Positions 8,843 through 62,178 of a DNA stretch of 64,000 nt are shown here, piece after piece. The notes below the pieces were generated by a model. It saw only the letters and a program-made list of their open reading frames with translations. It was not told the DNA's origin and made no database searches. Position 1 is the stretch's first letter; each line of letters starts with the position of its first letter. The DNA is from Actinomycetota bacterium. Its GTDB lineage: Bacteria > Actinomycetota > UBA4738 > HRBIN12. The position numbers and the translations under genes are program-made. The stretch covers positions 902,913-966,912 of the forward strand of contig BPGL01000001.1 of assembly GCA_026003015.1 (NCBI GenBank), given 5' to 3'.

Positions 8843-10625
8843 CTAGGCGCGCTCCACGACGCAGGCCTGCCCGGTCGGGCAGCGGATCACACCGTGCTCG
8901 AAGGTCGCCGTCCCTCCGCCGGACGGCAGCGCCCGAACGCGGCTCGTCGGGAACCCCAGGGGGCCGGCCGGACCTCCGGCGTCGAGGTAGGTCGTGAGCA
9001 CCCGGCCCCACAGCGCGTGCACGCCGGCCGTGGGCTTGAAGAAGATCACCCCTCGCTCGAAGCGCACCCGACCGCAGCGCGTACACGAGATCCCGCGCTC
9101 GGCCCCGGCCAGGCTCGCGACCTTGGAGACCGGCAGTCCGAGCCGACCTTCCCCCAGGCCGACCGCCTCGTACTCGTCGAAGACCCCACCCCGCAGCCAC
9201 ACGGTGAGGTCGACGCGGTCGTTGTGGAAGATCCCTCCCCGCGAGAACAGCTGCTCCGAGCCGCCCGTGAGCGCTCGCTGGCGCGAGGTCGGCAGACCGG
9301 GCCGGCACCCGAGCGCGTCGTAGCGCTCGCGGATCGCGCCCGGGACGACGTTGCGGTTCACGTTGATCCACACGCGGACGTCCCGCAGGCCGAGCGCGGC
9401 CCGCAGACGACTACCCGAGATCGTGGCGCGTCCATCGGTGCCGCGCACCACGACGCTCACGATCCGGCCCGAGACGCCACGGCGCACGGGGCCGAACCCG
9501 ACGACCCGTCCGATCGCCCCCGTCGACGGGCGCAGCCGCGACGTCACCTGGTCGGCGCTCATCGTGACCTGCCAGTTCAGCCACGGGTTCCCGGTGGTCG
9601 ACTCCCCCGGATCGCAGACCCCACGCAGCCACGGGATGCGGTAGGCGTCGTTGCCTCCGTGCCACACGTCCTCGACGTTCTCCGTGTGCCCACCGTCGGA
9701 CGCCGCGTAGAACGCCTGCACGATCGCACCGCCGTAGACGACGACGCGCCCGCGCGTGTCGCGGACCGCGCCGACCCACCGGTCGCCGTCGGTGGAGCGC
9801 TCCTTCGACGCGCCGACGTAGACCTGGTCGCCGGCCCCGTCGGTCAGGTGGCAGTCGCAGCCGGGCCGCAGGCCCCCCTGTCGGCGGATCGTCGCCGCGG
9901 CGTAGGAACGCGCCGCGACGGCCTGCGCCCGCAGCACCTCCACCGGCCAGGAGGAGGGGACCTCGCCCAGGCCGTAGAGGTACTCCTCGAAGCCGAGCTG
10001 CACGACGCCGCGGATCCGGCACGCCGCGGTGCACCCGTACAGATCGAGGTCGATCACCCCCCGCGCGTAGGAGAAGCCGTGGCCCCAGATCTGGTCGGCC
10101 TCGGGGATGAACACCCTCGCGCCGTCCTGCTCGTAGGTGAGGAAGAGCCGGCGCGTCGTCCCGCCCCAGGTCCGCCCACCGACCAGGTTCCCGTCGCCGT
10201 CGAGCACGGCGAAGCGTCCGTCCTGCGCCCGAACGGTCCACGTCGCCCCCGCCGGGGATCGTGCCGACCGGCGTCCCGGCGTGCGGCTCGCCGACCCACA
10301 CGCCCACCGGGCCGCCGCGGGCTCCGAGTTGGAGGCGGGCGACGCCTGCGACGAGCTCCACCCGGATCGTCGAGGGCAGGTCGCCGCGCCGCGCGACGTC
10401 GGTTCCGCTGAAGAAGTGGGTGAGGATCCGCGCGTGCCCCCAACCCATGCGCGCCAGGCCGAGCGCGCCCCACTGCGACATCCCGATCCCGTGGCCGTAG
10501 CCCGAGCCGTAGAAGGTGAACGAGGACGGAGCCGCCGACGCGCCGGGGGCAACGGCCAGGACCGCGGCGGTGAGCGCCGCGATGGCGAACGCGATCCTGC
10601 TGGGTGGCCGCACGCTCGTCGTCAT
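8843..10625 (-). CDS. SpoIID/LytB-domain protein with C-terminal LGFP repeats, with an apparent +1/-1 frameshift near 10240-10262 (possible pseudogene or sequencing indel)
   Basis: The frame starting at 10625 encodes a signal peptide plus FTFYGSGYGHGIGMSQWGALGLARMGW. The frame ending at 8843 continues with ATWTVRAQDGRF...LYGLGEVPSSWPVEVLRAQAVAARSYA...YAASDGGHTEN (SpoIID core) and then GRLGLPVS / GPLGFPTS (LGFP repeats). The two frames meet inside a C5/G4 run. Confidence 0.7.
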
Positions 10626-10720
10626 CCCCCGAGAGCTCAGGCCCCCGAGAGCTCAGGCCCCGAAGGCCGGGCACCCTAGCACATCGACCCAGAGCCACGG
10701 ACGCTTGAGCCCCGCGGTGC

Positions 10721-11755
10721 TCAGCGCTCGGCGACCGGCTCGGCCGCGGGACCGGGAACCCGCTCGCCCCGCAGGGTCTGCCCGGCCGCCACGCTCGCGC
10801 CGGCCCCGAGCACGCAGTCGACCACGGTCGCCCGCTCCCCCACCCGCGCCCCCGGGCCGAGCACCGAGCCCACGACGCGCGCGCCCGCTTCGACGCGGCT
10901 GCCCGCGTGCAGGACGGCGTCGTCGACCTGTGCCGCGGGCCCGACCCACGCCTCGGAGCCGACGGCCACACCGCGACCGAGGTGGGCGCGCAGATCGACC
11001 TCGGCGTCGGGATGCACCCAGGGCGCGGGGTAGCGGATCCCCGCGACGCGACCGAGCAACAGGTCCAGGTGTGCCTGCAGGTACTGCTCGGGGGTGCCGA
11101 GGTCCATCCAGTACGCCTCGGATGGGAACGCCATCACGCGCTCCCCTGCTTCGATCACCGCGGGGAAGATCTCACGCTCGATCGAGATCGGGCGGTCGGC
11201 CGTCCAGCGGCGCAGGCACGATGGGTCGATGAGGTACGTGCCGGCGTTGATCATGCCCGGGATCGCTTCGGCGGGCTTCTCGCGGAACGCGACGACGCGG
11301 CCGTCGGGCCCGTGTTCGACGAGCCCGAACGCCCGCGCGTCCTCCACCCGGTGCAGCGCGATCGTCACGGTCGCGCGCGCGCGCTCGTGCGCCGCGCGCA
11401 TAGCGGTGAGGTCGAGGTCGGTGACGATATCGCCGTTGAGGGCGAAGAACGGCGCGTCGCCGAGCCGGCTCAGCGCGTTCACGATCGCGCCGCCCGTGCC
11501 CAACGGTTCGGTCTCGGTCACCCACGTGACGCGCGGGTCACCACGGCGCGCCTCAAGGAACGGGCCGAACGCCGTCGGCAGGTACGGGGAGCTCAGGACG
11601 GCCTCGCGCACGCCGTGGCGGGCGAGGTGGTCGAGCACGTGATCCAGGATCGGCCGGTCGACGAGGGGCAGGAGGGGCTTGGGGGTCGTCTCGGTGAGGG
11701 GACGCAGACGCGTCCCCTCGCCGCCCACGAGCACGACCGCCCTCACGCCCACCAC
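10721..11755 (-). CDS. Mannose-1-phosphate guanylyltransferase-like NDP-sugar pyrophosphorylase
   Basis: N-terminal VVLVGGEGTRLRPLTETTPKPLLPL nucleotidyltransferase motif and a C-terminal left-handed beta-helix region. Confidence 0.8.
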   Translation of the reverse strand: MVGVRAVVLVGGEGTRLRPLTETTPKPLLPLVDRPILDHVLDHLARHGVREAVLSSPYLPTAFGPFLEARRGDPRVTWVTETEPLGTGGAIVNALSRLGDAPFFALNGDIVTDLDLTAMRAAHERARATVTIALHRVEDARAFGLVEHGPDGRVVAFREKPAEAIPGMINAGTYLIDPSCLRRWTADRPISIEREIFPAVIEAGERVMAFPSEAYWMDLGTPEQYLQAHLDLLLGRVAGIRYPAPWVHPDAEVDLRAHLGRGVAVGSEAWVGPAAQVDDAVLHAGSRVEAGARVVGSVLGPGARVGERATVVDCVLGAGASVAAGQTLRGERVPGPAAEPVAER

Positions 11756-12609
11756 CCCCGCGCGCGCTCGACGGCCCAGGCGAGCTCGGCGCGGGCGCGC
11801 AGCACGGCCCAGGCGAGCGGCAGGGTGGCCCGCCGTATACCCCGGGCGCGGTGCTTCCGGTAGTACCGGTAGATGCTCTGCGAGTGCATGAGCAGGAAAC
11901 GGCGGGTTCGGCCGGTGGAGACCCCGCCCTCGTGGATCACCTCCGCCGAGGGCGTGAACAGCACGCGCCGGCCGAGCTCGCGCATCCGGGTGGCGAGGTC
12001 GAGCTCCTCCCCGTAGAGCCGGAACCCCTCGTCGAAGCCACCCGCTTCCTCGAAGGCCTCACGGGGGATCAGCATGCAGGCGCCCGACACCCAGTCCACC
12101 TCGCGCTCGCTCCGCCGGTCCCAATCCGCGAGCTCGTAGCGACGGGTGAACGGGTTCCGGCGGCTGAGCGGAGACCACAGCGCGTGCCCGAGCGCGTCGA
12201 ACACCCCGGGGAACGTCCGGCCGCTCGGATAGACCGTCCCGTCGGGGTTGCGGATCATCGGGCCGACGATCCCGACGCGGTCGTGGCGACGCGCCGCCTC
12301 GACGAAGCCCGCCAGGGTTCCGGCGAACCACTCCGTGTCGGGGTTCAGGAACAGCAACCAGGGCGCGGTCGTCTCGCGGGCGCCCTGGTTCCAAGCCGGC
12401 GAGAGGTAGACGTTCGTCGGGTTCTCGATCAGACGCACCCACGGGTGGGCCTTCACGGCCGCGCGGTGGGAGCCGTCGCGCGAGGCGTTGTCGATCACGA
12501 GCGCCTCCACCTCGATCGGCCCTCGGTGCCTCTCGAGCGACGCGAGGCATCGGCGGAGGTAGGCGCCCGTCTCGTAGTTCACGATCACCACCGCCAGGTC
12601 GGCGCTCAT
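11743..12609 (-). CDS. Family 2 glycosyltransferase
   Basis: MSADLAVVIVNYETGAYLRRCLASLE...IDNASRDGS (GT-A fold with a DxD-like motif). The start ATG overlaps the upstream stop (ATGA). Confidence 0.8.
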   Translation of the reverse strand: MSADLAVVIVNYETGAYLRRCLASLERHRGPIEVEALVIDNASRDGSHRAAVKAHPWVRLIENPTNVYLSPAWNQGARETTAPWLLFLNPDTEWFAGTLAGFVEAARRHDRVGIVGPMIRNPDGTVYPSGRTFPGVFDALGHALWSPLSRRNPFTRRYELADWDRRSEREVDWVSGACMLIPREAFEEAGGFDEGFRLYGEELDLATRMRELGRRVLFTPSAEVIHEGGVSTGRTRRFLLMHSQSIYRYYRKHRARGIRRATLPLAWAVLRARAELAWAVERARGWWA

Positions 12610-13028
12610 GCGTGGGGCGTCTGGGCCACGAGGACGATCCCGATGCAGATGAAGGCCACTCCCACCCACCGCAGGGGCGGCACGGTCTCGTGGAGGACGA
12701 ACACCGAGAACGCGACGATCAAGACGTAGCCGAGCGCCGCGAACGGATAGGCGAACGAGAGCGACGCGCGCGACAGCGCGAAGATCCACAGGATCGCCGA
12801 GATCCCGAACAGCGCGAGGCCGGCCCAGACGAGCGGCGTGCTCGCGATCGCGCGCAGCGCCTCGGGATCGAACCGCAGTCCCCCCTCCTGCCCGCCCGTC
12901 ACGCGGTTCACCCCTTCCTTCAGGGTGATCTGCGCTGCGCCGGCGATCAGCACCGAGGAGACGATCAACGCGATCAACACCGTGCGTTCACCTCCACGCC
13001 CTCCTTCCCCGCTCGAGCTCACGGTCAC
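12606..13028 (-). CDS. Small 4-TM DMT/EamA (ArnE/ArnF-like) membrane protein, possibly a lipid-linked sugar flippase
   Basis: About 120-140 aa with four hydrophobic helices and the LSRASLSFAYPFAALGYVL motif typical of the SMR/ArnE family. Translationally coupled to the GT2 gene. Confidence 0.5.
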   Translation of the reverse strand: MTVSSSGEGGRGGERTVLIALIVSSVLIAGAAQITLKEGVNRVTGGQEGGLRFDPEALRAIASTPLVWAGLALFGISAILWIFALSRASLSFAYPFAALGYVLIVAFSVFVLHETVPPLRWVGVAFICIGIVLVAQTPHA

Positions 13029-14206
13029 GGGTCGCTGACCTCGGCTCGGACCGGGACGAACACCTGCTCCCGACCGCCCTCGGCCGACTCCACGGAGAAG
13101 GCGTAGCGCTGATCCTGCACGTGGTAGGCGTGGCGGTTGTCGCGGGAGTGGACGCCGATCGTGACCCAGTACCGGCCGGCGACGAACGGCAGGGGGCCGA
13201 CGTGGAACCGGACCCGGCGTTTGCCCTCCAGCCGGCCGAGGGGGACGCCCGAGGAGGCCGTGTCCCCCCCGACGACGAAGCGGTTCGCGGCGTCGTGCAG
13301 CGCGAAGGACACGACCGGGTCATCCACCGGCTCGTTCGCGCGCAGATCCACCTGGATCGTCAGGACGTCGCCCGGGGCGAGCGGCCCGCCGAGCGGATCG
13401 TCCCCCACGAGCAGCGCGGCCGAGTCGATCTCGACCTCCTTCGAGCCCTCCTCGTGCGCGAACGCCAGGTCCTGACGAAGGATGGCCATCCGCATGTCGC
13501 GCACGACGTCGTCGGGAGCGCCCGCGGCCCGTACCCGGCCGTGGTCGAGCATCACCGCGAGGTCGCAGAGCTGGCGCACCTGGTCCAGCGCGTGCGTGAC
13601 GAGCACGATCGTGCGTCCCTCTCGCTGGAAGCGCTGCACCCGCTCGATGCACCGAGCCTGGAACGCCTCGTCGCCGACCGCCAGCACCTCGTCGACGAGG
13701 AGCACGTCGGGGTCGACGTGAACGGCGACCGCGAAGCCCAAGCGCACGAGCATCCCCGAGGAGTAGAACTTCACGGCGGTTTCCATGAACCCCTCGAGTT
13801 CGGCGAACCCCACGATGTCGTCGTAGACGCGGTCGGTCTCGCGCCTGCTCATCCCGAGGAACGACGCGTTCAGGTAGACGTTCTCCCGTCCCGTCAGCTC
13901 CGGGTGGAAACCGGCGCCGAGCTCGAGGAGCGCTGCGAGGCGCCCGCGCTGTCGGACCGATCCCGTCGTCGGCCGCAGGATGCCCGCGATCACCTTGAGC
14001 AGGGTCGTCTTGCCCGACCCGTTGTGGCCGATCAGACCGAAGGAGCTGCCGCTCGGCACGTCGAAGGTGACGTCGCGCAGAGCCCAGAAGTCCTCCGCAC
14101 GGCTCCGGCCGGCGAGGAGCCGTTGCTTGAGCGAGGTCGGCTTCTCCCGCCAGATCCGGAAGCGCTTCGAGACGTCCCGGACCTCGATCGCCGCCGACGC
14201 GCTCAC
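13025..14206 (-). CDS. Polysaccharide-export ABC transporter ATP-binding protein (Wzt/TagH-like) with a C-terminal carbohydrate-binding domain
   Basis: Walker A GHNGSGKTTLLK, signature YSSGMLVRLGFAVA, Walker B LLVDEVLAVGD, and an extra ~150-aa C-terminal beta domain. The start GTG at 14206 overlaps the wzm stop. The track's 13025..14998 ORF is an over-extension. Confidence 0.85.
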   Translation of the reverse strand: MSASAAIEVRDVSKRFRIWREKPTSLKQRLLAGRSRAEDFWALRDVTFDVPSGSSFGLIGHNGSGKTTLLKVIAGILRPTTGSVRQRGRLAALLELGAGFHPELTGRENVYLNASFLGMSRRETDRVYDDIVGFAELEGFMETAVKFYSSGMLVRLGFAVAVHVDPDVLLVDEVLAVGDEAFQARCIERVQRFQREGRTIVLVTHALDQVRQLCDLAVMLDHGRVRAAGAPDDVVRDMRMAILRQDLAFAHEEGSKEVEIDSAALLVGDDPLGGPLAPGDVLTIQVDLRANEPVDDPVVSFALHDAANRFVVGGDTASSGVPLGRLEGKRRVRFHVGPLPFVAGRYWVTIGVHSRDNRHAYHVQDQRYAFSVESAEGGREQVFVPVRAEVSDP

Positions 14207-15042
14207 AGCTCCTCCGCGAAGTCGCCCGACATCGCGAAGTACAGCCGCCAGGTCCCCCACAGGGCCGCCAGCCCGATGACCGTCACGGCCGTGAGCAGGG
14301 CCCCGAGGGTGCCGGTCGTGAAGTCGGGCAACACCTCGCCCGCGTCCGCGGAGTGGTACAGAGCCCGCTGGAACCCCGACACGATGGTGGTCATCGGGTT
14401 CAACAGGTACAGGTGCCATGCCGAGGCGCCCCCGACCCGCACCGACGCGAGCGTCTCCTGCGCCAGTCGGCCCGGGTACACGATCGGGGTCAGCCAGAAC
14501 CACACGAGCAGTCCGAGCCCGAGCAGGTGCTGTACGTCGCGATACCGGACGTTCATCGCTGCGACGAGCAGGGTGACCGCGGTCGTGACGACGAGCAGCG
14601 CCGCGATCGCGAGAGGGTACAGCCAGATCGTTGCGAGCACGAACCCGTACCCCGACGCGAGCAGGAAGACGAGCAGCACGGACGACTGCAGCACGAAATC
14701 GACGAGCGCCACGCCCACGGTCGCGAGCGGAAGGATCTCGCGCGGGAAGTACACCTTCTTCACGAGGTTCGCGTTCGCGATCACCGACTGCGATCCGTTC
14801 GACAGCGAGGCGTTCAACAGGTTCCAGGGCAACAGCCCGGCGAGCAGGAACACCGGGTAGTGATCGATCCCGCTGCCCAGGACCACGACCACGAAGGAGA
14901 AGACCGCGAGGAACACGACCGGGTTCAGCAGCGACCAGACCGCGCCGAGGACCGAGGCCGTGTACTTGACCTTCAGTTCCTTGCGCACCAGGTTCCACAG
15001 GATCTCCCGGTAGGACGCGAGCTCGCGCACGCGCGTGCGCAC
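14203..15042 (-). CDS. ABC-2 type polysaccharide-export permease (Wzm/TagG-like)
   Basis: 279 aa with six predicted TM helices and an ABC-2 N-terminus (YREILWNLVRKELKVKY). Confidence 0.8.
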   Translation of the reverse strand: MRTRVRELASYREILWNLVRKELKVKYTASVLGAVWSLLNPVVFLAVFSFVVVVLGSGIDHYPVFLLAGLLPWNLLNASLSNGSQSVIANANLVKKVYFPREILPLATVGVALVDFVLQSSVLLVFLLASGYGFVLATIWLYPLAIAALLVVTTAVTLLVAAMNVRYRDVQHLLGLGLLVWFWLTPIVYPGRLAQETLASVRVGGASAWHLYLLNPMTTIVSGFQRALYHSADAGEVLPDFTTGTLGALLTAVTVIGLAALWGTWRLYFAMSGDFAEEL

Positions 15043-15198
15043 GCGCAGCCTCGGGGGCTCGGAGGTGCGTTCGGTGAGGTCGGCGGTGGCGATGGCGGTG
15101 ACTCCTGTCGAGGACGAACGCGCCGGTCGACGGGCCGGGGCGAGTCTAGCAACGGGTGCGCCGGAAACCGCGCAGGGGCGGTCGGGGACCGCGGAGCA

Positions 15199-16425
15199 TC
15201 AGCCCTGCCCGCGGAGCTCCCGAAGCGCGCGGACGTAGCTGAGCCCCCACCCCCGGGCGAGGGCCCCCTCGTCCACGCCGAGGTCCAGGAGCGCCGCAGC
15301 CCACCGCCGCATCGGGTGAGCGGTCGGGTCGTGCACGAGCGCGGCGGTGGCCGCGATCGCCCGCGCCCAAGCCCGCGCGGCGCGCTCCTGCCGACTCGAT
15401 CGCTCCGCCTCGGCCGCCGCCGCCCGACCCAGGGCGGCGGCCCGCCCGGGATCGGCGATCAGCCCGGCGAGGGCGGCGCCGAGCTCGCTCGACCGTTCCA
15501 CCAGCACGAGGGCCCCGCGGTCGACGTCCGCCGCGGCGCCGCGCGCTCGGGCGACGATCGGTCGCCCGAGCTGCATCGCCCCGACGAGCGACCGAGCCTC
15601 CCGGGGCTCGCCCAGGTGCACGACGATGTCGGCCGCCGCGAGCCACCCGAGCCGCTCGGCCGGATCTCGGGCCGCGACGCGCACCCCTGGACCCGTGGAC
15701 GCCGCGTCGTCGCCGAGCACGACGACCTCGGCGCCCGGCCCCAGACCCGCACGCGCGGCGACGAGCGCCCGCTCCCACCGAGGCTCCCCCGGGGTGGCCA
15801 CGATCAGGGTTCCGGCCCCGCGCGCCGTCGCCCGTGCCCGCAGCCGCGCCGCTCGCCGCCGCGCGGAGCGGATCGTCCGGGGGTCCTCGGCGGGCGGGGG
15901 AGCGACGACGATCGGGGTGCGGCACCCCAGTCCCTCGAGCGCCGCGCGGTCCTGCTCGCAGGCGACGACGATCCCTCGGGACCGTCGCGCGATCCCCGCC
16001 ACGGTCGCCGCCGCCCCGGTTCCCCGCCGGTCCTCGGCCCAGGCGGCCTCGCGCGCAGCCGCGATCGCAACCGCGTCGCCCTCGACCTGCAGCCGGCCGA
16101 TCACCCGGCCCAGGTCGAGCTCGTGGAGGGCGATGAGCCCCGGCACCGACCACGCGAGCCGGAGCGCGTCGGCGAACCGCTCGGGCTCGTTCGCCAGGTG
16201 CACGACCCCCAGTCGCCACGCACGCAGGTCGGCGAGATGCCGGGGCTCCACCGGCCACAGCAGGTCGATCGGCGTGGCGAACCCGATCCGATCGAGGCCG
16301 GCGACGACGGCCCGAGCGGAACGTCCGACCTCGCCGTCGGGCGGCGCGACGACGGCCACGCGCCCGGCTCGCGCGTCCGGGCGAGCGACGAGCCGAAGCA
16401 GCGTGCGCTCGAGGACGCCGGCCAT
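15199..16425 (-). CDS. Glycosyltransferase, GT-B fold (GT4-like), divergent
   Basis: C-terminal half has a GT1/GT4-like nucleotide-sugar-binding pattern (GEPREA..VGAMQLGRPIVA). Weak but positional support within the polysaccharide locus. Confidence 0.55.
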   Translation of the reverse strand: MAGVLERTLLRLVARPDARAGRVAVVAPPDGEVGRSARAVVAGLDRIGFATPIDLLWPVEPRHLADLRAWRLGVVHLANEPERFADALRLAWSVPGLIALHELDLGRVIGRLQVEGDAVAIAAAREAAWAEDRRGTGAAATVAGIARRSRGIVVACEQDRAALEGLGCRTPIVVAPPPAEDPRTIRSARRRAARLRARATARGAGTLIVATPGEPRWERALVAARAGLGPGAEVVVLGDDAASTGPGVRVAARDPAERLGWLAAADIVVHLGEPREARSLVGAMQLGRPIVARARGAAADVDRGALVLVERSSELGAALAGLIADPGRAAALGRAAAAEAERSSRQERAARAWARAIAATAALVHDPTAHPMRRWAAALLDLGVDEGALARGWGLSYVRALRELRGQG

Positions 16426-19703: not shown

Positions 19704-19746
19704 AGGACCCCCCGCCGCGGCCTGAACGGTCGGGGGCGGCGGGAGT

Positions 19747-20898: not shown

Positions 20899-20943
20899 GA
20901 CGCGAACGGCGATCCCCCCTCGTACGCCCGGGCTGGCGGGACG

Positions 20944-22008: not shown

Positions 22009-22017
22009 GGCGGCAGT

Positions 22018-26246: not shown

Positions 26247-26249
26247 GGA

Positions 26250-52655: not shown

Positions 52656-54236
52656 ATGCCCGAGGACGAGCCAGCCGAGCCGGACCGCAGCGTCGAGGAT
52701 CGCATCGAGGAGCTTCGGCGCCGCCGCGAGGAGGTCCTTGCGCCCGGCGGCCGAGAGGCGGCGGCCAAACAGCACGAGAAGGGCAAGCTCACCGCCCGCG
52801 AACGCCTCGAGATCCTGATGACAAGGGATCGTTCGTCGAGACCGACCCGTTCGCCGTCCACCGGGCGCACGACTTCGGGATGGACCGTCGCCGGCCGCCG
52901 GGCGACGGCGTCGTCACCGGGTTCGGCTCGATCGACGGGCGCAAGGTCTTCGTTCGCCAGTCAGGACTTCACCGTCTTCGGCGGCTCGCTGGGCGAGGTG
53001 ATCGCCCAGAAGGTCTGCAAGGTGATGGACCTGGCCATGCAGAGCCGGTGCCCCGTTCATCCGGCTCAACGACTCGGGCGGCGCGCGCATCCAGGAGGGC
53101 GCGGCCTCGCTCGCCGGTTACGGGCACATCTTCGAGCGCAACGTTCGTGCCAGCGGCGTCATCCCGCAGATCAGCGTGATCATGGGGCCGTGCGCGGGCG
53201 GGGCCGTCTACTCGCCCGCGATCACCGACTTCACGTTCATGGTCAAGGAGACCTCCCACATGTTCATCACGGGCCCGGACGTGATCCGGACCGTCACCGG
53301 GGAGGAGGTCACCTTCGAGGAGCTCGGCGGCGCGATGACCCACGCGGCACGGTCGGGGGTCGCGGCCTTCGTCGGCGAGGACGACGAGGACACCTTGCAG
53401 CGCGTGCGCTACCTGCTGTCGTTCCTGCCGTCGAACAACCTCGAGGACCCTCCGGCCTACGCGCCGACCGACGATCCCGATCGGATGGACGAACGGCTCA
53501 CCCACGTGGTCCCGGACCGACCGCAGGAGCCCTACGACATGCACGAGGTGATCCGCGCGGTCGTCGACGACGGCGAGTTCCTCGAGGTCTTCCCGTTCTG
53601 GGCGATGAACATCGTCGTGGGCTTCGCGCGCCTGGACGGCCGAACGGTCGGGGTCGTGGCGAACCAGCCGAAGGTCCTCGCCGGGACGCTCGACATCGAT
53701 GCGAGCGAGAAGGCGTCTCGGTTCATCCGGTTCTGCGACGCGTTCAACGTGCCCCTGCTCACCTTCGTCGACGTTCCCGGGTTCCTGCCGGGCACGCAGC
53801 AGGAGTACGGCGGGATCATCCGCCACGGCGCGAAGCTCCTGTACGCCTTCGCCGAGGCGACCGTTCCTCGGATGACCGTGATCACGCGCAAGGCGTACGG
53901 AGGAGCCTACGTGGTCATGAACTCCAAGCACCTGCGCGCCGACGTCGCCTACGCCTGGCCGACCGCCGAGATCGCGGTGATGGGCGCCGAGGGCGCCGTC
54001 AACATCGTGTTCCGCAAGGAGATCGAGCGTGCGGCCGATCCGGAAGCCAAGCGCCAGCAGCTCATCCGGCAGTACCGGGAGAAGTTCTCCACCCCCTACG
54101 CCGCCGCCGAACGCGGGTTCATCGACGACGTGATCGAGCCTGCGGAGACACGACCGCGGCTCGTGCAGGCCCTGCGGATGCTCTCGACCAAGCGCGAGGC
54201 GCTGCCGCGCGCAAGCACGGCAACATCCCCCTGTGA
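52656..54236 (+). CDS. pccB: Acyl-CoA (propionyl-CoA) carboxylase carboxyltransferase beta subunit, disrupted by four single-nucleotide frameshifts (pseudogene or sequencing indels)
   Basis: The protein is recoverable only by switching frames 0->2->0->1->0, at about 52816, about 52957, about 53052 (an extra C in a cccc run) and about 54208. The reconstruction reads ...[71 protein letters not shown]...[28 protein letters not shown]...[15 protein letters not shown]...[16 protein letters not shown]. The KHGNIPL ending, remembered from mycobacterial AccD5, is only in frame 0. Confidence 0.8.
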
Positions 54237-54789: not shown

Positions 54790-55901
54790 AGGTCGCGTTC
54801 CAGGTCGACCAGCTGTGGTTCGCCGCACCCGGCGGGATCGGCACCTACGTCGCCGAGCTCGCCCAGGCCCTCACGGCGCTCGCAGACGGGCCGAAGGTCG
54901 TGGGGTTCCGCGCACGGATCGACGGGACCCCCCATCGTCCGCCGGGCGTGCCGGTGGTGGAGCTTGCCGCGACGATCGGCCGCCTCTACCCCGCATGGGC
55001 CCTGCTCGGCCGTCCGCACCTGCCCGCCCCCCTCGACGCCTGCGACGTCGTGCACGCCACGAACCACGCGTCGATCCCTCCGGTCCGGCGCGGGCAGGCG
55101 CTCGTGGCCACGGTCCACGACCTCGCCTTCGACCGGTTCCCGACGCTGTTCCCCCCGAGCTGGCGGTGGCTGTACCGGGCGGGGGTACGGGCTGCGATCG
55201 CGCGCGCGCACCGACTGCTCGTCCCCAGCCGCTCGACCGCGCGCGACCTCGCCGACCGCGGCGCGGACCCCACGCGGATCGCGGTCACCCCCCTGGCACC
55301 CGCGTTGCCGACGGCCACGGGGGACCCGGGTCCCGTCCTGGAACGCCTCAAGATCCCCCGCCCCTACGTCGTGTGCCCCGCGACGATCGAACCCCGCAAG
55401 AACCAGGCGATCCTCGTTCGCGCCTTCCGCCAGGCGGCGGCGGAGCTCCCCCACGCCCTCGTGCTCGCCGGCCCGGTCGGATGGCGCACGGGCTCGCTGG
55501 AGGCCGAGCTCGCCCGCGGCGGTCCCGGCACGATCGTGCGCACCGGCGGGCTCAGCGCCGAGGACCTCGACGCCGTCTACCGGGGCGCGGACGCCGTGGC
55601 GTACCCCTCGCGCTACGAGGGCTTCGGTCTCGTGATCGTCGAGGCGATGGCCCGGGGGGTTCCGGTCGTGACCTCCACCACCCCGGCGTGCTCGGAGGTC
55701 GCGGGGGACGCGGCGCTCCTCGTCGACCCCGACGACGTCGGTGGGCTCGCCGACGCGCTCGTGCGCGCGTGCACCGACGCCGGGTTGCGCGCCGAGCTCG
55801 TGCGGCGGGGGCGGCGGCGCGTCGAAGGGCTCTCGTGGGCGGCGACGGCGCACGCTACCCTCCGCGCGTACCGGCAGGCCCTCGCGGAGGTGCGCGGATG
55901 A
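54786..55901 (+). CDS. Family 4 glycosyltransferase (GT-B fold)
   Basis: The GTG at 54786 overlaps the cupin stop. EX7E region RYEGFGLVIVEAMARGVPVVTSTTPACSEV. Confidence 0.8.
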   Translation: MKVAFQVDQLWFAAPGGIGTYVAELAQALTALADGPKVVGFRARIDGTPHRPPGVPVVELAATIGRLYPAWALLGRPHLPAPLDACDVVHATNHASIPPVRRGQALVATVHDLAFDRFPTLFPPSWRWLYRAGVRAAIARAHRLLVPSRSTARDLADRGADPTRIAVTPLAPALPTATGDPGPVLERLKIPRPYVVCPATIEPRKNQAILVRAFRQAAAELPHALVLAGPVGWRTGSLEAELARGGPGTIVRTGGLSAEDLDAVYRGADAVAYPSRYEGFGLVIVEAMARGVPVVTSTTPACSEVAGDAALLVDPDDVGGLADALVRACTDAGLRAELVRRGRRRVEGLSWAATAHATLRAYRQALAEVRG

Positions 55902-56911
55902 AGGTCTCCCTCGTCGCGACGGTGCTGGACGCCCGCGAACGCGTCGGGCCGTTCCTCACCTCGATCGCGGCCCAGACCCGGCCCCCCGACGAGATCGTGA
56001 TCGTCGACGGGGGCTCGACCGACGGCACGCTGGACGTCGTGCGCGCCGCCCGCGGCGTCGTCGTTCTCGAGGAGCCGGGGGCGTCGATCGCCCGAGGTCG
56101 CAACCTCGCGATCGCGCGCTCGACCCACGAGGTGATCGCCGTCGCCGACGCCGACTGCCTCTACGAGCCGGGGTGGCTCGCCGCCCTCATGCGGACGATC
56201 GAGGAGGGCGCCGACGTCGCGATGGGGTGGTACGAGCCCATCGTCGAGGGGCTCTGGGACGCCTGCCTCGCGTCGGTGAACCTGCCGCTCACCCCGGCGG
56301 AGATCGACCCCGACCGCTTCATGCCGAGCGCCCGGTCGGTGGCGTTCCGACGGGAGGCGATCGAGGCCGTCGGTGGCTACCCGGAGTGGCTCCCTATCGG
56401 GGAGGACATGTGGGTGAACCACCGGTGGCGCGAGCGCGGCCTCGACCTGCGCTTCGCGCCCGACGCCGTGGCGCGCTGGCCGCTGCGGCCGGATCCCGCG
56501 GCGGTGTGGCGCCAGTACCTGCGCTACGCGCGGGGGGACGCCCACGCGGGGATGTACCCCGAGCGTCACGCGCTCCGGGTGGCGGTCTACGGCGGGCTCG
56601 CGGCCGCGCTCGTGAGCCGACGCCGCTGGCCGCTCGCGCTCGCCGCCCTCGGCGGGTTCGCGTACGCCCGCACACCGATCCGACGGGCGTGGAGCCGTCT
56701 CGGCGCCCCCGCAGAGCGGGCAGCCGCCGCGGTCCTCGTGCCGACGCTCATGGCCTGGATCGACCTCGCGAAGCTCGCCGGCTACGGGATCGGGCTCGTG
56801 GACCGACTGCGCGGCCGCGCCGGCCCTCAGTACGCGAAGAAGCCCCGGCCGCTCTTGCGACCGAGGCGTCCGAGCTCGACCATGCGACGAAGGAGCGGCG
56901 GCGGCGCGTAG
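55898..56911 (+). CDS. Family 2 glycosyltransferase
   Basis: ATGA overlap with the upstream gene. IVIVDGGSTDGT ... AVADADCLYEPGWL GT-A motifs. The C-terminal tail overlaps convergent hbd by ~85 nt, so the true stop may be earlier. Confidence 0.7.
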   Translation: MKVSLVATVLDARERVGPFLTSIAAQTRPPDEIVIVDGGSTDGTLDVVRAARGVVVLEEPGASIARGRNLAIARSTHEVIAVADADCLYEPGWLAALMRTIEEGADVAMGWYEPIVEGLWDACLASVNLPLTPAEIDPDRFMPSARSVAFRREAIEAVGGYPEWLPIGEDMWVNHRWRERGLDLRFAPDAVARWPLRPDPAAVWRQYLRYARGDAHAGMYPERHALRVAVYGGLAAALVSRRRWPLALAALGGFAYARTPIRRAWSRLGAPAERAAAAVLVPTLMAWIDLAKLAGYGIGLVDRLRGRAGPQYAKKPRPLLRPRRPSSTMRRRSGGGA

Positions 56912-57684
56912 GCGGGGTCGCCGAACTCCGCGTGGAGCACCTCGGCGGTCTGCAGCACGACGTCGAGGCCGACCAGGTCGGCCAACGCGAGCGGCCCCAT
57001 CGGATGCCGGAGCCCGGCGGTGATCGCCAGGTCCAGGTCCTCCGCGGAGGCCACGCCCTCGTCGAGCAAGCGGATCGCGCCGCACAGGTACGGGATCAGG
57101 AGGCGGTTCACGATGAACCCGGCGCGATCGGCGGAGCGCACCGTCCGCTTGCCCAGTCGTCGGGCGAACCCCTCGACGAGCTCGACGGTGGCCGCCGAGG
57201 TCGCGAGCGACGGCGTCACCTCGACGAGCTCCATCCGCGGGACCGGGTTGAAGAAGTGCAGGCCGACGACCCGGTCGGGGCGCGTGGTCGCCGCGGCGAG
57301 CGAGGCGATCGGGATCGAGGAGGTGTTCGAGGCGAGCACGACCTCGTCGGCCACGATCCCGTCCAGGGCCCGGAGGATGTCGGCCTTGATCGACCGATCC
57401 TCGGTCGCGGCCTCGATCACGAGGTCGACCTCGGCGAGGGCCCCGAGCTCGGTCGCGCCCCGGGTCCGGGCCAGGGCCGCGTCGCGCTCATCCGGGTCGA
57501 GGCGGCCGGCGTCCACGGCTCGAACGAGCTCCCGCTCCAGTCGCTGGCGCCCGTGCTCCAACCGCTCCGCCGTCGGCTCCACGTAGACGACCTCGAGCCC
57601 GGCCTGCGCGGCGACCTGCACGATGCCGGCGCCCATCACGCCGACACCGACCACCCCGACGCGTCGGATGTCCTCGGCCCGCAC
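56827..57684 (-). CDS. hbd: 3-hydroxybutyryl-CoA dehydrogenase
   Basis: VGVVGVGVMGAGIVQVAAQAG Rossmann motif, SNTSSIPI, HFFNPVPRMELVEV, and the C-terminal GRKSGRGFFAY ending characteristic of Hbd. Confidence 0.9.
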   Translation of the reverse strand: MRAEDIRRVGVVGVGVMGAGIVQVAAQAGLEVVYVEPTAERLEHGRQRLERELVRAVDAGRLDPDERDAALARTRGATELGALAEVDLVIEAATEDRSIKADILRALDGIVADEVVLASNTSSIPIASLAAATTRPDRVVGLHFFNPVPRMELVEVTPSLATSAATVELVEGFARRLGKRTVRSADRAGFIVNRLLIPYLCGAIRLLDEGVASAEDLDLAITAGLRHPMGPLALADLVGLDVVLQTAEVLHAEFGDPAYAPPPLLRRMVELGRLGRKSGRGFFAY

Positions 57685-57705
57685 CCGTCCTCTCCTCGCC
57701 GGAGC

Positions 57706-58281
57706 CTACGACACGTCGGCCCGCGCGGGGGGCGTTCGCCCAGCGGCCGGCCCCAGGTGATCCTCGAGGGCCCGGAAGGGCTCCGGCCGGTGCCCGACGA
57801 GGAACGGGCGCCAGCCCTCCAACGCCCGGGCCGCGACGGGGTCCTGGTCGACGAGCCAGGCCAGGTGCCGGAGCGTGTGGCCGAGCACCTGGCCCGGATC
57901 GATCCGCTCGGGCGGCGAGGTCGCCTCGCCCACGGCCACGGGGGCGGCGTCGAGGGGCTCGAGCTCGACGGTCGGACTCGTCGGCGGGTCGACGACGGCC
58001 ACGTAGGTGAGCACCACCGACCCCTCGTCGAACCGCCAGGAGGTCGAGTGGACGAACCGCGGTCGAAGCCCGAGCGCCTCGACGAGGCCGACGACGCGCG
58101 CGTGGGGGTGCTCGTCGCCGCTGGGGACCCGGAGCTGCCCGTTCGGCCTCGGCGCCCGTGAAGCGCCGGGGGCCCCCCGCACCGGCTCGGCCCCCGGCGT
58201 CTCGGGCGGACGGATCCGGCGGATCCCCGCCTCGGTCGCGCACAGGAGCAGCACCTCGACGAGCACCTGCTGCAGGCTCAT
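57706..58281 (-). CDS. Hypothetical protein (191 aa)
   Basis: An ORF from the ATG at 58281 with consistent GC3 bias. No recognised domain. The track's 886-aa ORF on this strand is an over-extension. Confidence 0.35.
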   Translation of the reverse strand: MSLQQVLVEVLLLCATEAGIRRIRPPETPGAEPVRGAPGASRAPRPNGQLRVPSGDEHPHARVVGLVEALGLRPRFVHSTSWRFDEGSVVLTYVAVVDPPTSPTVELEPLDAAPVAVGEATSPPERIDPGQVLGHTLRHLAWLVDQDPVAARALEGWRPFLVGHRPEPFRALEDHLGPAAGRTPPARADVS

Positions 58282-58326
58282 GCAGATGCATGATACTGCA
58301 TCAGCTCCAAGCCGGCCCCGGGTACG

Positions 58327-58905
58327 ATGTGCTGCGTGGACGGTGCCGCCCCGCGCGCTCGGTGGCTCGCCCCGCTGATCGCCGCAGGGGTGCTGGCCGG
58401 CCACGCGCTCACCTACGCGATCGTCCGGCCCGACGCCCACGAGCGCGCCGCGGCCCTCGCGGCCAGCGGCCACGGGTACCTGGATCGGATCGCCCTGCCC
58501 CTGGCCGTCATCGCGATCGTCGCCCTGGCCGCGGCCGGCGTCCGCGGGCTGGCGGCGCCCTCGCGCGTCCCCACCCTGCTCGCGCGCTGCGTCGGCGCGC
58601 AGGTGGGGCTGTTCGGCGCGATGGAGGTCGTCGAGCGATGGCTCGCCGGCGCGCCACTCGCCGACCTCCTCCACGGCGACGTGCTCCTCGTCGGGCTCGT
58701 CGTCCAGATCGTCCTCGGCGCCGGGCTGGCCTGGCTGCTTCGCCGCCTGTTCGCACTCGGCGCCGAGCTCGCCGGGGCGCGACCGGTCACGCCGCCGCAG
58801 CCGGCGATCATCGCCCTGGGCGGGGCCCTCGCGCCGGCCCGTCGCACGGCCGCGGCGCTCGCCTGGCCGGGGCCGCGAGCCCCTCCACGGCGACCCGTCG
58901 CTTGA
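58327..58905 (+). CDS. Hypothetical integral membrane protein (about 4 TM)
   Basis: Hydrophobic helices (LAPLIAAGVLAGHALTYAIV, ALPLAVIAIVALAAAGV, VLLVGLVVQIVLGAGLAWLL). Divergent from the upstream gene across an AT-richer spacer. Confidence 0.35.
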   Translation: MCCVDGAAPRARWLAPLIAAGVLAGHALTYAIVRPDAHERAAALAASGHGYLDRIALPLAVIAIVALAAAGVRGLAAPSRVPTLLARCVGAQVGLFGAMEVVERWLAGAPLADLLHGDVLLVGLVVQIVLGAGLAWLLRRLFALGAELAGARPVTPPQPAIIALGGALAPARRTAAALAWPGPRAPPRRPVA

Positions 58906-58971
58906 TCCGGATCCCCGGCGGGAGCCCACGAGGGCTCTGCCGGTGCTCATGAGACGGAAGGAGTTCGTGCG

Positions 58972-59649
58972 ATGGGAACGATGCGACGCACCGTGTCCGC
59001 GCTCGCCGTCGCCGCGGGGCTCGTCGGGCTCCTCGGCGGCGCGCGTCCCGCGCTTGCCCACGAAGCCCACGCGATGGGCGACCTGGAGCTGGTGATCGGG
59101 TTCGGCACCGAGCCCGCCTACGCGGGGATGCCGAACAGTGTCCAGGTGCTCGTGCGTCACGACGGGGAGCCGGTCACGAACCTTCGGCCCGGCGACCTGC
59201 GGGTCGAGGTCACCTACGGCGACGCGACGAGCGAGTTCGAGCTCGAGCCGTTCTTCCGGGTCGGGGTCTTCGGTGAGCCCGGCGACTACCGCGCCTGGTT
59301 CGTCCCCTCTCAGCCCGGCGACTACACGTTCCACGTCATGGGGCGCGTCGAGGGCGAACGGGTCGACACGTCCGTCACCTCCGGGCCCGACACGTTCTCG
59401 CCGGTGATCGACCCCGTGGCCGAGGCGTTCCCACCCGTCCAGGCACCGACGAACGCCGAGCTCGCCGAGCGCCTCGAACGAGAGGCCTCGCGCAGCACAG
59501 AGGCGATCGCGCGGGCCAACGACGCCGCGGCCGCCGCGACGGACGCCGCGGCGAGCGCGCGCACCATCGGGGTCCTCGGCACGGCGCTCGGGGCCGCGGG
59601 CCTGGCGGTCGGCGGTGCGGCCCTGCTGCGACGCCGGACCGCCGGGTAG
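58972..59649 (+). CDS. YcnI-like (DUF1775-like) secreted copper-binding protein with a C-terminal membrane anchor
   Basis: Signal peptide ...GARPALA followed by a mature N-terminal His (HEAHAMGD), consistent with a His-brace. A C-terminal TM segment GVLGTALGAAGLAVGGAALL. Sits immediately upstream of copC-copD, as B. subtilis ycnI does with ycnJ. Confidence 0.5.
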   Translation: MGTMRRTVSALAVAAGLVGLLGGARPALAHEAHAMGDLELVIGFGTEPAYAGMPNSVQVLVRHDGEPVTNLRPGDLRVEVTYGDATSEFELEPFFRVGVFGEPGDYRAWFVPSQPGDYTFHVMGRVEGERVDTSVTSGPDTFSPVIDPVAEAFPPVQAPTNAELAERLEREASRSTEAIARANDAAAAATDAAASARTIGVLGTALGAAGLAVGGAALLRRRTAG

Positions 59650-59655
59650 TCGACC

Positions 59656-60231
59656 GTGCCGCGACCGCTCGCACTGCTCGCCCACGCGGGCGCGGCCGAC
59701 GAGTCGCTCGCGATGGCCATGGTCGTCGCGAGCCTGTGGATCGCCTGGGTGGGATGGTCGCGGCTGCGCGGGACCGGGTTCCCGCGTATTCCTCGGTGGA
59801 GCGCGGCCGCGCTGCTGGGCAGCGCGGCCGCGCTCCTCGTGGCGTCCGCGATCGTGCCGCGCGCCGTGCTCGGGCCCTCCACCCCCTCCCCCGCGGCCGG
59901 CCCCCGGCCGAGCTCGACCGCGACCCTGCGCGTCGTGGAGCCCGCGCCCGGTACGCTCGTTCGCGGCGATCGCCTCCGGGTCGTGCTCGCCCTCGAGGGC
60001 GGCCGGATCGTCGAGTCGGCCTCGACGGAGCTGCGGCCCGACACCGGGCACGTCCACGTCGTCGTCGACGGACGGATGGTCTCGATGACCTACGGAACCC
60101 TGCAGATCGTGGACCTCTCGGGCCTCACGCCGGGTCGCCACGAGCTCGAGGCCGAGTTCGTCGCCGCCGACCACGCACCCTTCGCCCCCCGCGTGCTCGC
60201 CCGGACCTGGTTCCGGTTGGAGGAAGGGTGA
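59656..60231 (+). CDS. Membrane/secreted protein with a conserved His-rich domain (GHVHVVVDG ... ADHAPF), tentatively DUF4399-like; paralog of 62168..62588
   Basis: N-terminal hydrophobic segments, then a domain sharing RVVEP-G-V-GD-L-V-L...RPD-GH-HV--D-----SM...G-H-L--EFVA-DHAPF-PRV with the downstream paralog. The GTG start follows the upstream TAG. Confidence 0.45.
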   Translation: MPRPLALLAHAGAADESLAMAMVVASLWIAWVGWSRLRGTGFPRIPRWSAAALLGSAAALLVASAIVPRAVLGPSTPSPAAGPRPSSTATLRVVEPAPGTLVRGDRLRVVLALEGGRIVESASTELRPDTGHVHVVVDGRMVSMTYGTLQIVDLSGLTPGRHELEAEFVAADHAPFAPRVLARTWFRLEEG

Positions 60232-62178
60232 ACGTGCGCCGCGCCCTTGGGGTCGTGCTCCCCGTGGCGGCGCTCGCCGTCCTCGTCCTCGCGCGGCCGG
60301 CCCTCGCCCACGCGGGGTTCCGCTCCTCCGATCCCGCCGACGGCGCGAGGCTCGAGCGGTCTCCAACGACGATCACCCTCACGTTCACCGAGGCCGTGGA
60401 CCCGAGCATCTCCACCGTCCGCCTCCTCGACGCCGCCGGCCGCGCCGTTGCGACGGGGTCGCCGGAGCAGCCGACGGCCGAGGTCCTCCGCCTGCCGCTG
60501 CCCGAGCCGCTGGCCCGCGGCAGCTACACCGTGACCTGGCTCGTCGTCTCTGCGGTCGATGGCCACGTGACCTCCGGGGCGATCGCGTTCGGCGTCGGTG
60601 TCGAGCCCGGTGAGGCCGCCGCGACCGCGACCCCCCCCGGCCCCGTCAACCGCGTCGCCCCTCGGGATCGGCGCGAGAACGCTCCTGCTCGTCGGCGTCG
60701 CCCTGTTGCTCGGGCTCGGCGCCGTCGGCGCACACGTCCTCGAGACGACGCCGGCCTCCCTTCGCCCCCTCGCCGTCGCCGCCGGGCTCGCGACGTTCGG
60801 CGGCGCGGCCCTCCTCGTCGCGGCCGAGGTCGCCCTGCTCGACCGGCCCGCCGTGGCCGTGTTGGCGTCGGAGCCCGGCGAGCGCCTCCTCCGCCTGCTG
60901 ATCGGCGCCGGCCTGGCCGCGGCGGTGGCCGTCGTCGCCGCGGCCAGGCCCCGGCGCGCCACGCTCACCGCGGCCGGCGCCGCCGGCGCGGTCGTCGCCG
61001 TCCTGCGCGCGGGCGCGGGCCACGCCGCCCCCGCGCCGGTGGACCAGGCGCTGCAGGCGGCGCACATCCTGGCGGTCGGCGGCTGGATCGGCGGGCTGGC
61101 CGTCCTGCTCGTGGCGTTGCGCGCCGGCGTGCCCGATCCGGTCCGAACGACCCGCCGGTTCTCGGCGACGGCCCTCGTCGCGGCGGCCGTCGTCGTGCTC
61201 ACCGGGACGCTGCGCGCCTGGTCGGAGACCGGCGGCCCCGCCGCGCTCGCCGAGACCGCGACCACGGCCTACGGACGCCTGCTCGGCCTGAAGGTCGTCG
61301 CCGCGCTGGCCCTGATCGCCCTGGGGGCGCGCAACCGTCGTCGGTCGCTCCCGGCCCTGGCCGCCGGCGACCCCGCGCCCCTCCGCCGCGTCGGGACGGC
61401 CGAGCTCTTGGTCGCCCTCGGCGTCTTCGCGCTCACCGGAGCCCTCACGTCGGTCCCCCCTCGTCCCACCGACGCGGTGCCCGTGCGGCCCCCCGCGATC
61501 CGCGCGGAGGGCCTGGACTTCGCCACCACGGTCCGAGCCTCGCTCAGCGTCACCCCGGGGCTGCCCGGCTCCAACGTCTTCGCGCTCGAGCTCATCGACC
61601 CCGACCGCGGGGACCCCGTGAACGCCGACGAGGTGTCGCTCACGCTCGAGCCGGTCGCCGGCGGGGTTCCGGCCCAGCGGGTCGAGCTGCGCCCGTCGGG
61701 GACGGCCTGGCGTGCCGAGAGCTCGGCCCTGGCGATCGCCGGCACGTGGCGGGCGACCGTTCGGGTCGTGCGGGGGTCCCAGGCGGTCGAGGTGCCGCTC
61801 GTCGTCACGACCCGCGTCGACGGCGCGCGCTCGAGCGTCGTCGAGGCCCCCGGGCAGCTGGCGATCACGACGATCGCCTACCGCGACGGCACATCCGCTC
61901 AGCTCTACCTGGACCCGGGCGATCCCGGCCCGAACCAGCTGCACGCCACCGTGTTCGACGCCGCCGGCGAGGAGCTCCAGATCCTCCACCCCACCCTCGT
62001 CGTCGTCGCCCCGGACGGCTCCGCAGCGCGGGCGGATCTCCTACGCTTCGGGCCGGGGCACGTCGTGGCGGAGCTCGACCTGGAGCCGGGGATGTGGGTG
62101 TTCGACCTCACCGGATCGACGCCGGGGGGCGGATCGGTGCAGGCGACCCTGCGCGCGCGAGTGGAGCCCGCGCCGTGA
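60228..62178 (+). CDS. CopC-CopD fusion copper transport protein with a C-terminal YtkA/Ig-like domain (YcnJ-like), with a frameshift in a C8 homopolymer (60631-60638)
   Basis: CopC domain in frame 0: signal peptide then AHAGFRSSDPADGARLERSPTTITLTFTEAVD...SYTVTWLVVSAVDGHVTSGAIAFGV. The CopD TM domain and C-terminal beta domains are in frame +1, starting at 60598. The junction is at cccccccc. Confidence 0.75.

Follow-up and report, generated by a model that had tools for sequence, protein, structure and literature searches.

Six single-base frame disruptions in a hot-spring Actinomycetota genome are very probably consensus errors of a low-coverage long-read assembly

Introduction

Residual indel errors in long-read assemblies break conserved open reading frames (ORFs) by single nucleotides, a problem that checks of the IDEEL type address (for context, Sereika et al. 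2022, PMC9262707). The window analyzed here, a 64-kb stretch of the metagenome-assembled genome (MAG) KatS3mg013 (Actinomycetota, GTDB g__AC-51) from Katase hot-spring sediment, resembles such cases in that 1-nt indels break conserved ORFs in a long-read assembly of low coverage, two of the sites lie at the longest local homopolymers, and correction restores proteins identical to those of independent assemblies. It differs from them in that four of its six indels lie outside long homopolymers and form a cluster with conservative substitutions in a single gene, and in its platform, which is HiFi, here at only 6.7x. HiFi data are normally regarded as not needing polishing, and their errors are expected mainly in homopolymers.

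Genuine bacterial pseudogenes likewise present as frameshifted conserved ORFs among intact neighbors. Unlike in pseudogenes, however, the indels of the window occur in no independent assembly, stop codons and loss of codon bias are absent, the substitution spectrum is opposite to the mutational bias, and the density of changes is ~100x the background strain divergence. Homopolymers are also hotspots of real replication slippage, and glpK in M. tuberculosis undergoes reversible frameshifts in a 7C tract. A +1 change in the C7 tract inside the copper-gene ORF described below would similarly switch a CopC-CopD fusion off, but in contrast to homopolymer-tract phase variation the same reads give C7, the tract is unconserved, and the two other spanning assemblies show no length polymorphism. 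Programmed shifts are exemplified by prfB, dnaX, and copA(Z) in E. coli; we know of no gene with four of them.

Results

Exact protein matches to locus tags KatS3mg013_0958, _0959, and _0961 place the window on a 1.41-Mb contig. The PacBio HiFi run behind the MAG is DRR290133; its CCS reads (>Q20) were assembled with metaFlye 2.8.3, with no polishing step reported, and KatS3mg013 reached a coverage of 6.70x (PMC9671151, Table S3). The MAG is thus of long-read origin, and its coverage is low enough for residual errors to be expected. We compared the window with public assemblies from ~20 other samples, which are 99.5–100% identical to it and span ~59 of the 64 kb (2166-13049 and 15825-64000), and with Logan contigs, a separate k-mer assembly that includes the DRR290133 read set. 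Five of the six indel sites are judged against other samples, that is, against very close, non-identical strains, and only the C8 site against the same reads.

The frame plot, Viterbi analysis, three-frame reading, and Pfam identities agree on exactly six frame switches in the window, which fall in three genes:

8843..10625, minus strand: gene with a SpoIID domain and LGFP repeats (Pfam SpoIID, LGFP), lying in two frames in the window
10246..10250, plus strand: run of five C (five G in gene sense), +1; four C in all six of L092, L093, L094, L145, L146, and L147
52656..54236, plus strand: pccB-type acyl-CoA carboxylase carboxyltransferase (beta) subunit (Pfam Carboxyl_trans, three-frame reading)
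52819..52820, plus strand: pccB indel 1, ATGAC against ATGGAC (Met55-Asp56), loss of one G (GG to G)
52952..52953, plus strand: pccB indel 2, GTTCGCC against GTCGCC, gain of a T (or, ambiguously, of a C), outside a G/C run
53044, plus strand: pccB indel 3, CAGAGCC against CAGACC, isolated gain of a G between A and C
54206..54207, plus strand: pccB indel 4, CCGCG against CCGGCG (Pro517-Ala518), loss of one G (GG to G)
60228..62178, plus strand: CopC-CopD fusion gene (copCD) with a GTG start at 60228 (Pfam CopC, CopD), split at the linker
60631..60638, plus strand: run of eight C, +1; seven C in independent assemblies, one of them from the same reads

Each switch corresponds to a 1-nt indel relative to near-identical independent assemblies, and across the ~59 kb of comparison these six gaps are accompanied by zero further indels of any kind. 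All six are private to the window assembly, with 0 carriers among 2-13 independent assemblies per site; the spoIID-like gene is intact in 6 assemblies and copCD in 2, while 9-10 samples have the intact state at pccB indels 1-3 and 13 have it at pccB indel 4. Six 1-nt corrections restore full-length ORFs of 593, 526, and 649 aa, all without internal stops. Within the uncovered stretches (1-2165 and 13050-15824) the Pfam-scanned ORFs give domain matches of nearly full length, to WhiB, ABC_tran plus Wzt_C, and ABC2_membrane. A preliminary description of this DNA had counted six single-base disruptions in three otherwise conserved genes, with all other genes intact, and had proposed that independent data reproducing the indels would speak against a technical origin. 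The count is borne out, and the indels were reproduced at no site, whether in the 2-13 assemblies per site or in the same-read Logan contig, which carries C7; its preference for artefact over pseudogenization agrees with their absence from all independent assemblies.

A seventh candidate switch at 32372-32491 was rejected, as the independent contig L128 aligns without an indel at this place and encodes a 243-aa gene. Searches for exact copies of the products of the frameshifted ORFs (52656-54236, 53176-54255, 60598-62178, 8843-10552, and 9411-10625) returned 0 records. This outcome is neutral; deposited coding sequences probably use other starts.

Removal of one base from the spoIID-like gene yields a 593-aa translation identical to that of L092, and the intact 593-aa SpoIID-LGFP gene is present in L092, L094, L145, L146, and L147. 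Among the contigs listed, none from DRR290133 covers this gene. Removal of one C from copCD likewise yields a 649-aa translation identical to that of L091, with intact 649-aa copies in L091/L138 (DRR290133) and L139 (SRR30649425). The DRR290133 Logan contig equals the window at every aligned base between 56197 and 64000 except for C7 against C8, and its C7 is assembled from solid k-mers within an unbranched 14.3-kb contig that encodes the intact fusion. Both other spanning assemblies (L091/L138 and L139) have C7, and C8 occurs in the MAG only. Two pattern scans of JGI metagenome_contigs for the copCD C run gave 0 matches, leaving two Logan contigs as coverage of the site. Among 11 more distant relatives CopC-CopD lies in a single frame, and the C run of the linker is unconserved, with maximum runs of 3-8 across relatives.

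These observations bear on whether the indels, or part of them, are real mutations of the Katase strain, candidates being an inactivation of pccB in the recent past and slipped-strand switching between ON and OFF at C7/C8 and C4/C5. The C8 run is the single longest homopolymer of the 64-kb window, a slippage-prone type of site, and the other five sites were compared with other samples rather than with the same reads. However, the sole site testable on the same reads contradicts a real mutation, the varying C run in the linker of relatives does not point to a contingency tract under selection, and the OFF state is seen in none of the ~20 samples. Taken together with the pccB evidence below, we consider real mutation improbable.

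The pccB indels (-1, +1, +1, -1) leave open a frame of 526 codons whose N- and C-termini are correct and whose interior is nonsense, whereas an intact 526-aa pccB is present in L081/L102, L082/L103, and L105. At indel 1 the missing G is present in 10 independent samples, and ATGGAC is also found in 11/11 aligned relatives. The additional base of indel 2 is carried by 0/10 independent samples covering the site (relatives read TTCGTSGC) and that of indel 3 by 0/9, while the G lost at indel 4 is present in 13/13. Insertions equal deletions in number, and each affects codon position 3 or 1. The CCCC at ~53049, the sole run of at least four bases beside the third pccB switch, is native: the intact alleles have it unaltered, as does the relative L004, which shares GGTGCCCCGTTC; a placement of the third frameshift at this CCCC was rejected, since the alignment shows the inserted G seven bases upstream.

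Could the C tract or the net-zero arrangement of pccB reflect programmed ribosomal frameshifting or transcriptional slippage that yields full-length proteins? The copCD switch, in a copper gene, does coincide with a long homopolymer, and the pccB shifts sum to zero and keep one ORF open. Yet near-identical genomes and the 11 more distant relatives are single-frame without a shift site, the orthologues examined for a conserved slippery site or shifted arrangement reading through every site in one frame, and at 74% GC chance alone would be expected to keep a pccB frame open. The net-zero pattern was rejected as a hint of recoding, as a zero sum has a chance of 6/16 and the translation between the shifts in the open frame is nonsense. 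We regard recoding as extremely unlikely.

Homopolymer length accounts for the sites unevenly. Runs of at least four bases hold two of the six indels, the spoIID-like C4 to C5 and the copCD C7 to C8; these two are changes of ±1 in a run of ~4 or more, and the four pccB sites are not. Runs of two or more contain 42% of the bases of the window, at 74% GC, so that for the pccB indels a location "at a G/C run" carries no information. The probability of at least two of six indels falling in runs of at least five is 0.005, indicating a real association, but one carried by two events. Nor do the indels scatter in proportion to homopolymer content: four of the six lie within 1.39 kb of pccB, a non-uniform distribution (P = 5e-4), and this stretch also holds 11 of the 24 private differences of the window. 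The clustering calls for a second, local cause in pccB. As a counterpoint to reading these indels as errors, one of the four involves no change of run length at all.

The pccB indels are accompanied by a burst of substitutions:

52910..53065, plus strand: six window-private substitutions (I86V, T88 synonymous, M112L, M116I, Q136R, and I137L), among which indels 2 and 3 are interspersed

A seventh private substitution, at 53700, is synonymous, so that six of the seven lie inside 156 bp, at positions invariant among the 14 closest cluster members. All seven are synonymous or conservative (P ~0.004 under random error), and they therefore look selection-filtered, beyond what simple low-quality-read error would give. 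Six of the seven are AT to GC or GC to GC changes, and the usual mutational bias is the opposite of AT to GC. Codon composition is intact, the Viterbi coding state being kept through all segments and the largest piece having a GC3 of 0.92. Signs of relaxed selection (stops, radical or AT-biased changes, eroded codon bias) are absent, and in the same lineage 0 independent assemblies reproduce any of the indels as a shared pseudogene would. Strain-private SNP patches do exist in this genome, with seven SNPs in 62641-63364 confirmed by a DRR290133 Logan contig.

For real mutation, such confirmed patches mean that the conservative pccB changes could belong to a real divergent patch. Against it, the window differs from DRR290133 Logan contigs elsewhere by 2 substitutions over ~22.8 kb, and against that background the 11 private differences within 1.39 kb of pccB exceed ~100x what neutral decay would produce; the spectrum is biased toward AT to GC, and four separate frameshifts in one gene of a near-clonal strain are implausible. 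A narrower version, to which we give a small chance, holds that part of the apparent error is microdiversity: the Katase pccB would have gained a real divergent patch in recent time (five conservative replacements, at sites that do not vary in its genus-level clade, with an AT to GC biased, gene-conversion-like spectrum), and/or C7/C8 in copCD would be a real ON/OFF slippage variant that segregates in the hot-spring population.

Logan contigs of DRR290133 cover 3369-6564, 18387-30151, and ~55900-64000. None contains in full the genes at 46.6-47.9 kb or 49.7-51.2 kb, and none among the contigs listed lies around pccB; this absence fits very low local depth there.

For pccB only, the burst may instead be a chimeric consensus of two alleles, the second contributed by another strain or by cross-mapped reads of a relative in the HRBIN12 family, for example KatS3mg014, from the same sample. 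The polisher would have turned SNP sites into substitutions, into insertions that keep both alleles (GTC/GTT to GTTC), and into dropped bases. Consistent with this, the substitutions are conservative or synonymous and fall at family-variable columns, V86, L112, and L137 being common states in more distant relatives; the equal count of insertions and deletions and their restriction to codon positions 3 and 1 would also fit. A same-family MAG is present in the sample at 4.7x, and contigs (short-read and Logan) of five samples break at 53094/5, in a conserved pccB motif, where k-mers are shared across genomes. A donor is harder to find. The five-change combination of private substitutions occurs in none of the 80 species-level relatives and 14 close cluster members compared, I116 and R136 are unseen at these loci, and the corrected allele is absent from a 15-billion-protein collection. 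Codon 55 (ATG) and codon 130 (ACC), two of the indel sites, are invariant in the close clade, although across all 78 relatives codon 55 is L in 46 and M in 30 and codon 130 is T in 65/78. Moreover, with a whole homologue at ~85% identity, third-position differences would be far more numerous than those present. On balance a chimeric consensus is a tentative proposal, possible yet doubtful.

Discussion

We propose that the six disruptions are, with high probability, consensus errors of a low-coverage HiFi/metaFlye MAG and not mutations of the organism. On this reading the feature is an assembly artefact and not a biological one. Both the spoIID-like expansion of C4 to C5 and that of C7 to C8 in the copC-copD linker would be classical homopolymer-length miscalls. 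The four pccB indels would represent a different error mode, confined to a short stretch of locally unreliable consensus, for which the likely cause is a local DRR290133 depth of ~1-2x and/or reads of a second allele mixed in at polishing. Low depth and allele mixing would each leave indels and substitutions together, and one or both would explain pccB better than homopolymer miscalls.

The preliminary description had placed all six indels in GC-rich runs and held them to be more typical of homopolymer sequencing errors, of long-read or pyrosequencing type. The assembly is indeed long-read (PacBio HiFi, metaFlye 2.8.3, 6.7x). The location holds for C5 and C8 and fails for pccB, where the changes are GG to G twice, +T, and an isolated +G. 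The mechanism, by the same division, suits the spoIID-like and copCD sites and does not extend to the four pccB indels, clustered as they are with seven substitutions; a uniform process would not put four of six indels in 1.4 kb, and homopolymer miscalling is therefore unsupported as a general mechanism.

The value of these findings is practical rather than biological, and the caution that had been attached to every "pseudogene" in this assembly stands as a warning for KatS3mg013. The MAG is classed as "high quality", yet the window contains ~1 frame-breaking error per 10 kb, a rate that, if genome-wide, would amount to roughly 200 indels in 2.2 Mb. Given this rate, the reads behind BPGL01000001-4 need checking before any seeming pseudogene, split gene, or absent function there is taken at face value, and the same caution applies to other bins of that assembly below ~10x. 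At 74% GC even a gene frameshifted four times can display a full-length ORF (526 codons) with correct termini, so that length-based checks would miss pccB.

Results

Because the window has a GC content of 74%, which leaves long open stretches in each of the six reading frames, genes were located by codon-position GC together with a codon-usage Viterbi path. Across the 64-kb window, coding potential switches frame without a stop/start junction at only three places:

8843–10625, minus strand: SpoIID + LGFP gene, frame switch (Pfam SpoIID plus LGFP)
52656–54236, plus strand: PccB/AccD-type beta subunit gene (pccB), four frame switches (Pfam Carboxyl_trans)
60228–62178, plus strand: CopC-CopD gene (copCD), frame switch (Pfam CopC then CopD)

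A seventh candidate at 32372–32491 was an atypical N-terminus; an independent contig carries a 243-aa gene there and no indel.

We positioned the four pccB lesions by DNA alignment with PccB relatives (n = 80 species-level, 67–89% amino acid identity, from uncultured Actinomycetota except a few haloarchaea). Near-identical public contigs (99.5–100%), found through exact-protein look-ups of intact neighbor genes, came from six JGI metagenomes and ~15 SRA runs in Logan, a set of public k-mer assemblies, and jointly cover 2166–13049 and 15825–64000. Over these intervals, the six indels are the only gaps between the window and the contigs; ORFs scanned in the two independently uncovered stretches give near-full-length Pfam matches (WhiB, ABC_tran plus Wzt_C, ABC2_membrane). 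These data bear out the preliminary description of six single-base indels among otherwise intact genes.

The six indels in the window and in independent assemblies
spoIID-like site; 10246–10250; window C5, others C4; 6 assemblies
pccB indel 1; 52819/20; window lacks the second G of ATGGAC, others ATGGAC; 10 samples
pccB indel 2; 52953; window extra T (GTTC), others GTC; 10 samples
pccB indel 3; 53044; window extra G (CAGAGCC), others CAGACC; 9 samples
pccB indel 4; 54206/7; window lacks one G (CCGCG), others CCGGCG; 13 samples
copCD site; 60631–60638; window C8, others C7; 2 assemblies

Independent assemblies yield intact gene calls of 593 aa (SpoIID-LGFP), 526 aa (PccB), and 649 aa (CopC-CopD). 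With a single base fixed in each, the window SpoIID-LGFP and CopC-CopD proteins are identical to those of public loci L092 and L091, respectively; corrected PccB differs from that of L102 by five conservative residues. The single-frame CopC + CopD fusion also occurs in 11 more distant relatives. Programmed recoding is effectively excluded because the orthologues are in-frame.

Several observations concern the relatives themselves. In one JGI locus (L093, 3300054704), the SpoIID-like gene is shorter by 81 bp (an in-frame loss of 27 codons, window 9002–9082) within its C-terminal LGFP repeats, a natural length polymorphism of that region. The same organism (99.5–100% nucleotide identity) is present in ~20 unrelated public metagenome runs (loci L081–L153; JGI 33000449xx, 33000547xx/549xx, SRR277300xx, SRR306494xx, ERR147xxxxx, and SRR353-356xxxxx), and the population appears unusually clonal and widely sampled for an uncultured hot-spring actinobacterium. 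The copCD orthologue of L055:16180–18020 (MAG MFD00031.bin.2.24) aligns in three pieces, with boundaries at …17793 / 17795… and …17866 / 17868…, suggesting candidate frameshifts in another public MAG that are possibly the same kind of artefact.

By exact look-ups, window proteins match GIU97121, GIU97141, GIU97155, GIU97156, and GIU97158, with tags KatS3mg013_09xx on a 1,409,366-bp contig and the record description 'MAG: Actinomycetota bacterium'. Kato et al. 2022 sequenced Katase hot-spring sediment (52 °C) on one Sequel II SMRT cell and assembled CCS reads above Q20 with metaFlye 2.8.3, mentioning no polishing step (PMC9671151). Their Table S3 lists KatS3mg013 at 6.70x coverage (4 contigs, BPGL01000001-4, 2.20 Mb, 72.95% GC; GTDB c__UBA4738; f__HRBIN12; g__AC-51) and KatS3mg014, of the same family, at 4.7x (PMC9671151). 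The run is DRR290133, hot-spring HiFi reads according to other papers, and its Logan contigs thus provide a second assembly made independently from these reads. They match the window at 100% identity over 3369–6564 and 18387–26568 and with 2 base differences over 26546–30151; over 56197–64000, an unbranched 14.3-kb contig differs solely in having C7 instead of C8. These contigs are the nearest proxy for the reads, and they contradict the MAG at C8, the only testable indel.

Real strain-specific mutation or phase variation at these sites is improbable. Slippage also favors homopolymers, and real private SNP patches do occur: seven SNPs in 723 bp (62641–63364), plus one at 61408, set the window and the DRR290133 contig apart from all 5–6 other samples. 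This is a genuine strain-private, recombination-like patch around DUF4399-like and Rce1-like genes, showing that SNP clusters arise naturally in this lineage. However, the same-read assembly contradicts C8, relatives do not conserve the copCD C tract, and four frameshifts in a single gene of a near-clonal strain are implausible.

True homopolymer length changes are confined to the spoIID-like and copCD sites. C8 is the longest single homopolymer in the 64 kb, and the association of these two sites with long runs is real (P = 0.005 for ≥2 of 6 in runs ≥5). The pccB lesions comprise GG to G twice, T to TT, and one isolated G between A and C, beside a CCCC that is unchanged in intact alleles and in the relative L004. 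A short G/C run nearby is uninformative, as 42% of window bases belong to runs at least two bases long. The proposed pattern of indels in GC-rich homopolymer runs therefore accounts for two of the six sites, and the four in pccB require a second, local failure mode.

Clustering of four of the six indels within 1.39 kb (P = 5e-4) is incompatible with a uniform error process. pccB also carries seven window-private substitutions (I86V, T88 synonymous, M112L, M116I, Q136R, I137L, and D348 synonymous), at each of which all 3–10 independent samples disagree with the window; six fall in 52910–53065, interspersed with indels 2 and 3. Elsewhere, over ~22.8 kb, the window and the DRR290133 Logan contigs differ by just 2 substitutions. 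Each of the seven is either synonymous or BLOSUM-positive, for which random error gives P about 0.004; six are AT to GC or GC to GC, and their positions vary across the wider family but show no variation among the 14 closest cluster members. The combination is carried by none of the species-level relatives or these 14 members, and the corrected allele was not found in a 15-billion-protein collection. Purely random read noise fits these substitutions poorly, and their spectrum and density, with zero stops, rule out neutral pseudogene decay.

Complete copies of the genes at 46.6–47.9 or 49.7–51.2 kb are missing from the DRR290133 Logan contigs, and no such contig around pccB was among the matches listed, suggesting local depth below the solid k-mer level. 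Two further private differences, which may be real strain SNPs or additional consensus errors, fall in a stretch also lacking these contigs: the dinucleotide GA at 45414–45415, where the five other samples all read AC, and a C/T difference at 46236. Logan contigs of five other samples all end at 53094/5, within an 11-residue motif, indicating k-mers common to other genomes; the conserved pccB core acts as a repeat between genomes, at which k-mer assemblies break. Ten other Logan contigs begin at 53.80–53.96 kb (53802–53955), inside pccB.

Discussion

The six frame disruptions represent no biological feature. The indels are absent from independent assemblies and C8 from the same-read assembly, upholding the initial view that they are long-read-type artefacts and that pseudogenes in this assembly are untrustworthy. 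Residual indels in long-read consensus pose the same familiar problem of spurious frameshifts (PMC9262707), here in a bin from HiFi reads with coverage of just 6.7x. For pccB, the best reading is that very low depth would have left the consensus locally unreliable; polishing may also have mixed in reads from a second allele or from a related bin such as KatS3mg014.

The value of these data is a practical warning, together with a small leftover puzzle, the conservative, GC-biased pccB substitutions. Despite four frameshifts, one pccB frame stays open over 526 codons, and both its N-terminus and its C-terminus (KHGNIPL) are the correct ones. Locus tags and genes are equal in number (13 each) between GIU97141 and GIU97155, and one tag falls between _0959 and _0961; this locus-tag arithmetic suggests that the deposited annotation has one CDS at pccB and one at copCD. 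Length-based quality checks could overlook the damage.

Two paralogous small DUF4399/DUF6130-like proteins (59656–60231 and 62175–62588) flank copC-copD, and a multicopper oxidase lies at about 26.25–27.6 kb, together suggesting a copper-handling neighborhood.
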